Sequence record: LR999871
From: Escherichia phage vB_Eco_Jura
Direction: 5' to 3' (one strand)
DNA length: 64,000 nt
Below the pieces are notes generated by a model. It ran no database searches. It was not told the DNA's origin and saw only the letters and a list, made by a program, of their open reading frames with translations. Below, one piece after another: positions 32,224-33,901 of the stretch (the stretch's first letter is position 1; every line of letters starts with the position of its first letter). The position numbers and the translations under genes were made by a program.

Positions 32224-32727
32224 CTATTCAAACAGTTTACGGTCAGAACGAATCTGGTTCCCCAGTTCAATCAGTTGGTTATCACGGAGTCTAACAGTTG
32301 CCCTGAGTTCTTCAACCAAACGTCTGCCTTCTTCAAGACTTGAGTCGAGTCTGGCTGCATGGCTTGCAAGATTGAGGCATTGAGTGGTTCCGGTTGAGGC
32401 TTGACGTTTATAACTCTCGGCTCGTTTTTCTGACTGGAGCAACCGACTATTGTACTGGTTAGTAATAGAATCAATAACGACTTCATAAGACTCTTTGGCT
32501 TTATCAAGTCGAAGGGTAAGTTGCCCGACTTCATAACTGTGTTCCCGATTCTTTTGGTCATAAGCCAGTTTTACTCTATCAAGTTCTTTTGAGTACTCCT
32601 TCTTATCTTCATCCCATAGTGCTTGAACTTTCTTTTCACCATGTTGTGAACCAAGAAGAAAAAGGGTAGCTCCCAGAGCTACCCCTCCCAAAAGACATAC
32701 AGTTAACTTAATTAACGATGTCTTCAT
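32224..32727 (-). CDS. i-spanin (Rz-like)
   Basis: Track start 32766 is an alternative start; the ATG at 32727 follows GGAGAGG and gives [26 protein letters not shown] (N-terminal TM) then a charged coiled-coil periplasmic domain. Confidence 0.6.
32271..32486 (-). CDS. o-spanin (Rz1-like), embedded in the +1 frame of Rz
   Basis: Internal Met gives [16 protein letters not shown] with a lipobox (IVG-C), followed by a short Pro-rich mature peptide (PQPEP); lies entirely inside the Rz ORF. Confidence 0.55.
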   Translation of the reverse strand: MKSLLILLLTSTIVGCSSQKNEPRVINVKPQPEPLNASILQAMQPDSTQVLKKADVWLKNSGQLLDSVITN

Positions 32728-33334
32728 TACACCTCTCCAGAGGGACATTACCAATACGATTAGCAATCCATCCTGTAGTGTACTCAGGCATATTAAGAGA
32801 TAAATAGTAGTTTAACTGTTTACCATCCAGAGACTTCAAAATGAGCTTACAGGCTTCTACTTTGCCTCGTTTATTCTGAAGGCTTTTATATGCACTTAGA
32901 GTTCCAGAACCGACTTTACCATCAACTTGTATTTTAGGGTAGTCTTTGCCATTTCTGGAGAAAGCATTAAGAGATTCTTGTAACCAACGAGATGGTCTTG
33001 CAGGTCCAGTATTAACACCAGCATCTACTAGTTTTTCTGTTACCGCTGGTGATACATCTGCAAACTTAACAAAGCCAGGCTTCAAGATGTAATCGTTGTA
33101 ATAAATACTTGATGCCATTTCCTGAGTTAAGTTCTTCATTGAACCATCCCAGTTATACATCGACTCTAGTTCTTGCTTATGCTTTTGAGCAACCTGAATA
33201 GTTACACCATGATTAGTTTCACCTCCTGGGTCTTTGGGGTCATTAACGTATCCACCCTCAACAGCAAATACAGCAGCAATGATTGCTGCAATAACCCCTC
33301 CAACACCGCCAACCTTCTTCTTACTTATTGCCAC
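32708..33334 (-). CDS. endolysin, GH108-type N-acetylmuramidase with N-terminal hydrophobic signal-anchor segment
   Basis: Start codon reads as GTG preceded by AGGAGG. N-terminal KKKVGGVGGVIAAIIAAVFAV then EGGYVNDPKDPGGETNHGVT (the GH108 EGGY...D.GG.T.GIT signature); C-terminal part resembles a peptidoglycan-binding module. Confidence 0.7.
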   Translation of the reverse strand: MAISKKKVGGVGGVIAAIIAAVFAVEGGYVNDPKDPGGETNHGVTIQVAQKHKQELESMYNWDGSMKNLTQEMASSIYYNDYILKPGFVKFADVSPAVTEKLVDAGVNTGPARPSRWLQESLNAFSRNGKDYPKIQVDGKVGSGTLSAYKSLQNKRGKVEACKLILKSLDGKQLNYYLSLNMPEYTTGWIANRIGNVPLERCNEDIVN

Positions 33335-33584
33335 ACCAATCCTCCTTTGGTTTCAAACGAACCAGTCGGCAAATAATATTCAGCACAAAGAGTGCTATAG
33401 CAATGTTATTGCCATGTGGAATATCTTTGAGGATATGTTGGGGTAATGCAGAGAAAGAACTGGATAAGACATCCACACAAGAGAAGAACAATATTGCTAA
33501 TGTGCTAATCTGAATAGATGCCCATTTCCAACAACGTTTCCAATTAGGAACCATTTCCACATGTTTGGTTAACTTGCGAACCAT
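33321..33584 (-). CDS. holin candidate (about 87 aa, two TM segments)
   Basis: Track ORF trimmed to the ATG at 33584 (after GGGAG). Two hydrophobic helices (ISTLAILFFSCVDVL, IAIALFVLNIICRLV) and a basic C-terminus, immediately upstream of the endolysin. Confidence 0.4.
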   Translation of the reverse strand: MVRKLTKHVEMVPNWKRCWKWASIQISTLAILFFSCVDVLSSSFSALPQHILKDIPHGNNIAIALFVLNIICRLVRLKPKEDWCGNK

Positions 33585-33901
33585 GCAAAAATCTCCCGTC
33601 TGGCAGCAGCCAGTATACCAATAATGATACCTGCTCCAGCCCATACCCATTTACCAAACAATCCAGCACCAACAACTTTGTGTTTGATGGTAATGAACTC
33701 TTCAATAGTAGGGGCAGACTCAGCCAGAGACTTTTCTACATTCTCTAGTCGAGTGTCCATCTTATTAATAGACAGTTGAAGGTTACGTACAGCATCATCT
33801 AAATCTTGCCGAGATTTAGCATCACGGGCATTATTTTCGAAGAGTGTCTTCATACGTTCCTCCATTCGAGCTAGGAGCACCTCTACGGATTCATGACTCA
33901 T
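33569..33901 (-). CDS. lysis-cassette membrane protein (110 aa; holin/antiholin candidate)
   Basis: ATG preceded by AAGGA; cytoplasmic coiled-coil N-terminus and a single C-terminal TM (GKWVWAGAGIIIGILAAA). Confidence 0.45.
   Translation of the reverse strand: MSHESVEVLLARMEERMKTLFENNARDAKSRQDLDDAVRNLQLSINKMDTRLENVEKSLAESAPTIEEFITIKHKVVGAGLFGKWVWAGAGIIIGILAAARREIFAWFAS

Follow-up and report, generated by a model that had tools for sequence, protein, structure and literature searches.

A probable complete N4 lysis cassette in Escherichia phage vB_Eco_Jura: pinholin, holin, signal-arrest-release endolysin and nested spanins

Between the portal and tail genes of Escherichia phage vB_Eco_Jura (sequence record LR999871) lies a group of small overlapping genes, and the question that this locus raises is what system they form and how it would bring the host cell to lysis. 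The locus covers positions 32224-33901, on the minus strand, of the 64,000-nucleotide stretch of the record that we analysed (the window), and it holds four successive overlapping open reading frames (ORFs) and one embedded ORF. We hold it to be, with high confidence, the complete five-gene lysis cassette of coliphage N4 (species Enquatrovirus N4), made of a pinholin (gp63), a holin (gp62), a membrane-tethered signal-arrest-release (SAR) endolysin (gp61) and a nested spanin pair (gp60 and gp60a). An earlier interpretation made from the letters alone (the sequence-only reading) had proposed a complete lysis cassette here, and all five ORFs lie at the bounds that it gave. The cassette has already been described and experimentally tested in N4, and the locus itself adds nothing new; the small additions made here are the recurrent hairpins, a SAR segment that would stand in place of the first helix of GH108 enzymes, and a poorly supported long form of gp62. 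The roles of all five genes come from the published N4 experiments, while identity, topologies, start sites, domains and motifs, and the conservation of two frames over the same nucleotides come from the present analysis.

The assignment to N4 follows from several observations. First, when positions 32100-34050 were compared with phage genomes by megablast, there were 14 full-length matches at no less than 99% identity, all of them to Escherichia phage N4 or to isolates of the same species; VEc25 was the closest (99.8% DNA identity), and N4 itself (NC_008720, 56852-58802) was 99.4% identical. Second, 12 of the 1951 bases differ between the window and N4, with no residue change in gp63, gp62, gp61, gp60 or gp60a, and all five cassette proteins are 100% identical to the N4 reference. 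Since they are residue-identical, the experiments made on the N4 proteins apply directly to the window. Third, the locus, gene order and overlaps are those of the N4 cassette gp60-gp60a-gp61-gp62-gp63, and the gene coordinates in RefSeq and in the record of AlfredRasser (BASEL collection) coincide with the window ORFs, with the labels Rz-like spanin or i-spanin for gp60, an embedded o-spanin, endolysin or N-acetylmuramidase for gp61, holin for gp62, and gp63. The neighbours of the cassette, both on its strand, are the gene of the 763-aa portal protein (29924-32215) and that of a 417-aa tail protein (34005-35258). Successive genes overlap by 16 (gp63/gp62), 14 (gp62/gp61) and 20 (gp61/gp60) nucleotides, and the portal gene starts 8 nucleotides after the end of gp60; the overlaps of 14-20 nucleotides suggest translational coupling.

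We compared the locus with the homologous region of 12 other N4-like phages (13 loci with the window), whose hosts are Shigella, Escherichia, Klebsiella, Achromobacter, Burkholderia, Erwinia, Xanthomonas, Alcaligenes, Stenotrophomonas and Pseudomonas, and with 80 phage loci from IMG/VR that encode a GH108 endolysin. In this sample of 80 loci, only N4-like phages have all five genes: gp63, gp62, gp60 and gp60a accompany the endolysin at six loci, all on contigs of about 70-78 kb. General family databases say less about the locus. In NCBIfam, the holin-associated N-acetylmuramidase family matched gp61 below threshold (66.6 bits, cut-off 240) and the other four proteins had no match, and an Rfam search of 31900-34300 at E <= 1 gave two chance-level matches only.

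What the genes do has been worked out in N4 over some time. The spanins were catalogued in 2007 and 2018 and the two holins assigned in 2025; gp61 had been characterised by Stojkovic & Rothman-Denes 2007, according to the account given in the preprint of Awuah et al. (bioRxiv 10.1101/2025.11.12.688109), from which the functional data below are taken. The cloned N4 genes gp60-63 lyse Escherichia coli in about 25 min. In this cloned cassette, deletion of gp63 delays lysis by 20 min and deletion of gp62 has no effect, and gp60-61 alone produce gradual lysis at 50-90 min without a holin. Spontaneous rapid-lysis mutants map to the juxtamembrane residues 62-72 of gp63 and to the SAR domain of gp61 (Awuah et al.). 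The positions of the genes and of their main elements, among them the predicted transmembrane domains (TMDs), are collected in Table 1.

Table 1. Lysis genes, internal elements and hairpins of the locus (window positions).
Feature	Position	Strand	Description
terminator-like hairpin	33917..33940	-	AGAGCCGGG-GAUA-CCCGGCUUU, then U residues; between gp64 stop and gp63 Shine-Dalgarno sequence, borders the cassette
gp63	33569..33901	-	110 aa, ATG start; pinholin; predicted cytoplasmic N-terminal coiled coil and single C-terminal TMD; identical to N4 gp63
gp63 'LIN domain'	33686..33718	-	codons 62-72 (SAPTIEEFITI), wild-type at all positions; highly conserved
gp63 TMD	33602..33670	-	about residues 78-100, VVGAGLFGKWVWAGAGIIIGILAAA; Gly/Ala-rich; Kyte-Doolittle peak 81-99
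gp62	33321..33584	-	87 aa; two-TMD holin; an in-frame upstream ATG (33650) would give 109 aa
gp61	32708..33334	-	208 aa, GTG start; SAR endolysin, N-acetylmuramidase; GH108 + PG_binding_3
gp61 SAR domain	33260..33313	-	codons 8-25, VGGVGGVIAAIIAAVFAV; K5-K7 before, catalytic E26 of EGGY directly after
gp60	32224..32727	-	167 aa, ATG start; i-spanin; N-terminal TMD (8-26), helical periplasmic domain of about 140 aa
gp60a	32271..32534	-	o-spanin lipoprotein wholly inside gp60, +1 frame; lipobox IVGC, Cys codon 32439-32441, mature protein 56 aa
gp60-internal hairpin	32653..32686	-	AGGGGTAGCTC-TGG-GAGCTACCCTT, then TTTCTTCTT; gp60 codons 14-25, from 22 nucleotides after gp61 stop

The published N4 experiments make gp63 the pinholin and give it the part of master timer in lysis. 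The sequence-only reading had described the first gene product as a coiled-coil protein with a C-terminal transmembrane segment, as borne out by a heptad-patterned helical region that precedes a single hydrophobic peak, and had left the holin and antiholin roles of the first two proteins undecided; these have since been answered, gp63 being the pinholin and gp62 a late-triggering, non-essential canonical holin (Awuah et al.). The gene has a ribosome-binding site (AAGGA, 6 nucleotides before the ATG), and residues G78, A79, G80, G83, K84, W85 and W87, in the TMD, are invariant in 10 homologues. The sole family that contains the protein is PHROG 5211, of unknown function; Pfam gave no family and coiled-coil noise only, and a profile search of the PDB returned generic coiled coils only. 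The resulting topology, a separate, tail-anchored pinholin with a cytoplasmic, sensor-like domain, is unusual among holins and was already reported in the preprint. It sets gp63 apart from the S21 family, which is defined by two TMDs, since gp63 has one C-terminal hydrophobic segment. Could gp63 be no hole-former at all, and act instead as an antiholin or as an activator of gp61? A single C-terminal TMD is unlike any classical holin class, neither Pfam nor PHROGs places the protein in a holin family, and earlier thesis work called it a gp61 activator. Yet gp63 alone causes a loss of more than 99% of viability, measured as colony-forming units, and it rescues a defect of the S21 pinholin, though not of the lambda holin S105; moreover, its removal slows the cloned cassette, as said above, and a phage deleted for gp63 was recovered only together with suppressor mutations in the SAR domain (Awuah et al.). 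We therefore judge this alternative very improbable and retain gp63 as the pinholin.

The same gene bears on the timing of lysis in this isolate. N4 delays lysis for hours and makes about 3000 phage per cell, and the rapid-lysis mutations reported in N4 gp63 are S62F, T65I, I70T/N, T71A and I72L (Awuah et al.). The window has the wild-type residues S62, T65, I70, T71 and I72 at these positions, as well as the wild-type G12 in gp61. Because wild-type alleles are present at every reported gp63 rapid-lysis position and at gp61 G12, the isolate is predicted to show lysis inhibition. Two further observations on gp63 stand apart from its role. A weak match to PHROG 1193 'hemolysin' (E 8.6e-4) prompted a comparison with XhlA-type lysis proteins, which also combine a coiled coil with a C-terminal TMD; this candidate was dropped, and the XhlA family is absent among the Pfam matches listed for 10 gp63 homologues at E <= 1, which amount to coiled-coil noise. 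Moreover, Met17 is encoded by an internal ATG (33853; element 33851-33863, minus strand) with GGAGGA 4 nucleotides before it, a possible internal start. Position 17 is Leu or Phe in nine aligned relatives from other genera, and such a start would be specific to N4.

The second protein, which the sequence-only reading had singled out as a holin candidate with two transmembrane segments, has a recognisable family. In its 87-aa form gp62 shows hydrophobic peaks at residues 29-47 and 61-79, and its family matches are Pfam DUF7940 (E 6.7e-13) and PHROG 1356 'holin' (E 6.9e-29); being small, with two peaks and a charged C-terminus (RLVRLKPKEDWCGNK), it fits a class II holin (two TMDs, N-in and C-in). 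N4 gp62 does no harm until late or until carbonyl cyanide m-chlorophenylhydrazone (CCCP) is added; it is then lethal and lets even lambda R, a soluble endolysin, out of the cell (Awuah et al.). When gp62 is deleted from wild-type N4, lysis comes about 1 h earlier, i.e. lysis inhibition is shortened (Awuah et al.), and this early lysis raises the possibility that the main task of gp62 is to regulate gp63, as an antiholin-like protein or by timing lysis inhibition, with the holes seen in plasmid expression being secondary. Such a function would also suit the co-occurrence of gp62 and gp63 in 60 of 65 N4-like genomes (Awuah et al.) and in all six complete cassettes among the 80 GH108 loci, the dispensability of gp62, the lack of gp62 mutants among more than 60 rapid lysers (Awuah et al.), and an upstream in-frame ATG that could turn the gene into a dual-start pair. 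However, co-expression of gp62 with gp63 speeds lysis and causes no delay, and the early lysis of the deletion was not reversed by supplying gp62, an excess of which left timing unchanged (Awuah et al.). We consider the regulatory function unlikely, though of the alternatives weighed here it is the one to be taken most seriously, and keep gp62 as a canonical holin.

A dual start was raised as a possibility by Awuah et al. The 87-aa start has the motif GGGAG 8 nucleotides before its ATG, and an ATG also stands at the aligned position in the other three Enquatrovirinae (MVRRL, MVHKL, MVRKL). A motif search found no Shine-Dalgarno sequence before either of the upstream ATGs (33650 and 33644). The 22-codon extension (33585-33650, minus strand), which overlaps the coding region of the gp63 TMD, is open in six of 10 loci and interrupted by stop codons in the other four (Moo19, RiverRider, Paxi and Holyagarpour). 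The 109-aa form is thus weakly supported, and the 87-aa form looks like the conserved product.

The endolysin was predicted by the sequence-only reading to be a GH108-type muramidase with a GTG start and an N-terminal hydrophobic anchor, exported by signal-anchor release independently of a holin, and each part of this prediction found support. The GTG lies 6 nucleotides after AGGAGG, and gp61 exceeds the Pfam cut-offs for both Glyco_hydro_108 (PF05838; E 8e-23, 81.2 bits, cut-off 21.2) and PG_binding_3 (PF09374; E 5e-9, 36.7 bits, cut-off 24.6); among the PHROGs it belongs to an endolysin family. Its relatives in the PDB are 6V3Z (E 1.9e-26) and 6V40 (E 1e-22), the Salmonella GH108 muramidases TtsA/Sen1395 (PDB 6V40, 6V3Z), which have the same GH108 + PG_binding_3 architecture and an EGGY...D.GG.T motif. 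In gp61 this motif reads EGGY...DPGG.T, with E26, G27, G28, D35, G37, G38 and T40 invariant among 12 homologues, and EGGY/D-x-GG-x-T is present at 80 of the 80 IMG/VR loci. Residues 8-25 are uncharged, half of them (9/18) are Gly or Ala, KKK stands on their N-terminal side, and the Kyte-Doolittle value over 8-26 is 2.17. As to export, N4 gp60-61 lyse gradually without any holin, and gp61 works in both holin and pinholin backgrounds; expressed alone, it leaks out and causes gradual rounding (Awuah et al.).

What does the anchor correspond to in the structure of the enzyme? In gp61, residues 16-25 are aligned with helix 1, the helix before EGGY, of the soluble homologue 6V40, and where gp61 has its uncharged segment the Salmonella enzymes have charged residues (e.g. 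DEIFAAILSR). We classed as SAR-like those IMG/VR GH108 endolysins in which 15 or more uncharged residues in a row lead directly up to EGGY: 21 of the 80 loci belong to this class, whereas the other 59 have a charged amphipathic helix and look soluble (e.g. DQIIEGILGK-EGGY). The segment thus appears to occupy the place of helix 1 of soluble GH108 enzymes. The cysteines of gp61 are C162 and C202, both nearly invariant, and none lies in residues 1-26, which places the protein outside the thiol-caged P1 Lyz type; the lack of a cysteine in the SAR segment and the alignment with helix 1 together speak for an R21-like activation, in which the SAR helix refolds, rather than for thiol caging. Some endolysins are secreted with a signal that is cleaved off, and one could ask whether gp61 begins with such an ordinary Sec signal peptide, since V-F-A at residues 22-24 satisfies the rule of small residues at -3 and -1 (possible site V-F-A|V, residues 22-25). 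Cleavage there would, however, remove residues aligned with helix 1 and cut one residue before E26. In addition, gp61 is membrane-associated and its lysis is synchronised by the pinholin, and acidic single substitutions in the segment (e.g. G12E) cause premature lysis, as expected of a SAR domain (Awuah et al.). A cleaved signal peptide is thus extremely improbable, and gp61 is better seen as a SAR endolysin. The segment is kept in 11 of the 12 N4-like gp61 homologues. It is absent in Erwinia phage S6, whose GH108 endolysin (L014:1303-1842) begins MNKTQIIDQVIGK-EGGY; this phage also has an extra gene between the endolysin and i-spanin genes.

At the downstream end of the cassette, gp60 and gp60a form an embedded two-component spanin, an analogue of lambda Rz/Rz1 in a separate family. 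As the sequence-only reading had it, the Rz-like protein has an N-terminal transmembrane segment and a coiled coil, and an Rz1-like lipoprotein with lipobox IVGC is fully embedded in its +1 frame; the further description of the latter as proline-rich is moderately true, with 5 Pro among the 56 mature residues, 4 of them within the first 19. gp60 starts at an ATG preceded at 4 nucleotides by GGAGAGG and matches PHROG 6197 'Rz-like spanin' (E 6.6e-68); its periplasmic part has no Pro, shows a heptad signal at about residues 118-147 and contains one Cys, C117. The hydrophobic, signal-like peak of gp60a ends LLTSTIVG|C, and the Ser at +2 is compatible with sorting to the outer membrane; besides the lipid-modified Cys, the mature protein, for which Awuah et al. 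also state 56 residues, has none. No match to the lambda-type Rz/Rz1 families was found, a Pfam search at E <= 0.1 giving a sub-threshold, unrelated ASA5 for gp60 and nothing for gp60a. A longer, TTG-initiated gp60 ORF (32766, 180 aa) was also considered and rejected, since ATG 32727 has a Shine-Dalgarno sequence and matches all annotations.

An ORF inside another gene could of course be an open frame due to chance, and gp60a has neither a Pfam or NCBIfam match nor more than weak PHROG matches (E ~1e-3), with a weak Shine-Dalgarno sequence before either of its candidate starts. Three observations have effectively refuted this idea. First, 13 of 13 N4-like loci, from 10 host genera, have a lipoprotein ORF in the +1 frame whose lipobox Cys never varies, and the embedded gene is annotated in several phage records. 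Second, the motif INVKP..PL...LQAMQP.ST..L..A..W..NSG.LLDSV of the mature o-spanin is largely conserved over the 12 aligned loci, at which the mature o-spanin has a mean pairwise identity of 0.56 and the i-spanin segment read from the same nucleotides one of 0.57; since the two frames are about equally conserved, both must be under selection. Third, N4 gp60 and gp60a fully complement a lambda lysogen defective in its spanins Rz/Rz1 (Awuah et al.). The nested pair is thus a genuine spanin.

These elements suggest how lysis would proceed. gp61 would be exported by Sec and remain tethered to the inner membrane by its weakly hydrophobic SAR helix, inactive because the catalytic Glu26 stands directly at the end of that helix. 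Meanwhile gp63 would accumulate in the inner membrane, held by its single C-terminal TMD, the coiled coil facing the cytoplasm, until at a given moment it would form small, depolarising holes. Depolarisation would then release gp61 synchronously, the SAR helix probably folding back as GH108 helix 1, and the muramidase would degrade the cell wall. Once the wall is lost, the complex of gp60 in the inner membrane and the lipoprotein gp60a in the outer membrane would disrupt the outer membrane. gp62, as a late and dispensable canonical holin with two TMDs, would probably provide a way out while lysis inhibition restrains gp63.

Several points weigh against this account or parts of it. A preprint is the source of the functional data, most of which were obtained with plasmids, and its authors note that the genes may be expressed in other ratios during infection (Awuah et al.). 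Plasmid gp62 failed to complement the shortened lysis inhibition of the gp62 deletion (Awuah et al.), so that the role given to gp62 in infection is tentative. The membrane orientation of gp63 is a prediction, on which the tools disagree, and basic residues flank its TMD at both ends. The refolding model of gp61 comes from a sequence alignment alone. Finally, the start of gp60a has two candidates, ATG 32534 (annotated in AlfredRasser) and ATG 32486.

Comparison with better-known lysis systems shows a shared logic served by different proteins. Phage 21 (S21-68/R21/Rz-Rz1) has the same order of events: loss of membrane potential through a pinholin, release and activation of a membrane-tethered SAR endolysin, and completion of lysis by spanins. 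The differences lie in the parts. S21 has two TMDs, of which TMD1 leaves the membrane, while gp63 has one C-terminal TMD after some 77 residues of cytoplasmic coiled coil; the muramidase gp61 belongs to GH108 and not to the T4-lysozyme type; and N4 carries a second, canonical holin. In spite of this, N4 gp63 complements S21 and N4 gp61 complements R21 (Awuah et al.). The N4 spanins share with lambda Rz/Rz1 the o-spanin embedded in the +1 frame, a type II i-spanin with a helical periplasmic domain and the functional complementation, but they fall outside the Rz/Rz1 sequence families, in PHROG 6197. With the holin T and antiholin RI of T4 there is no sequence similarity, and T has a large periplasmic domain where gp63 has a large cytoplasmic one; yet both T4 and N4 hold back lysis for hours, and in both the control acts on the holin. 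Published work on N4 lysis has not identified an antiholin.

The remaining question is whether the cassette is also set apart at the level of transcription. Its placement inside the structural operon, as the sequence-only reading had it, is supported by gene order and strand, with the portal gene 8 nucleotides downstream and tail genes upstream, but a terminator-like hairpin stands directly upstream of gp63, and the start of the cassette is therefore a probable point of transcriptional punctuation. This hairpin has a GC-rich stem of 9 bp and lies 14 nucleotides before the gp63 Shine-Dalgarno sequence, and the 103-nucleotide spacer between gp64 and gp63 folds at -29.1 kcal/mol (z -2.9). A hairpin followed by a U tract recurs in this same spacer at 10 of the 10 loci folded, and at 12 of 15 N4-like loci by a stricter scan, in which each locus has only 0-4 such sites per about 5.5 kb; the record of phage Paxi annotates a terminator in the spacer upstream of gp63. 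Neither terminators nor the hairpin upstream of gp63 are discussed in the N4 lysis preprint. N4 late genes, lysis genes included, are transcribed leftward by the host RNA polymerase with N4SSB. A scan for sigma-70 promoters in 29500-36000 gave 5 sites, against 14.9 in shuffled sequence, with none in the gp64-gp63 spacer, although N4 late promoters need N4SSB and such a scan may be uninformative.

A second hairpin lies inside gp60. Counterparts with different sequences occupy the same place in Moo19, G7C, KP8, ECBP1 and IMG/VR contig L018, and one stem pair is A-T in N4 but G-C in Moo19, a compensatory change made by two third-position substitutions that are both synonymous (Val GTA to GTG; Ala GCT to GCC). 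The record of vB_Eco_AL25 has 'terminator' among the feature names under the gp60 match, its position in the record being unchecked. Caution is called for because DNA that codes for TMDs, with its Ala, Gly, Leu and Phe codons, readily gives GC palindromes and runs of T; similar motifs are present in the SAR-coding part of gp61 in three phages, and the gp60 hairpin may be a by-product of the codon composition of the TMD. If both hairpins were active, the cassette could be gated at the RNA level too: they could fix how much pinholin, holin and endolysin is made relative to the spanins and to the structural proteins encoded downstream and, together with an antiholin-like gp62, could contribute to lysis inhibition in N4. 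We regard this extension as distinctly doubtful. Several classes of N4 rapid-lysis mutants map outside the lysis proteins. Next to the cassette, in the portal gene gp59, codon 27 (window position 32136), near the N-terminus of the protein, encodes Leu in N4 and Pro in the window, which is the sole amino-acid difference in the 1951-nucleotide comparison.

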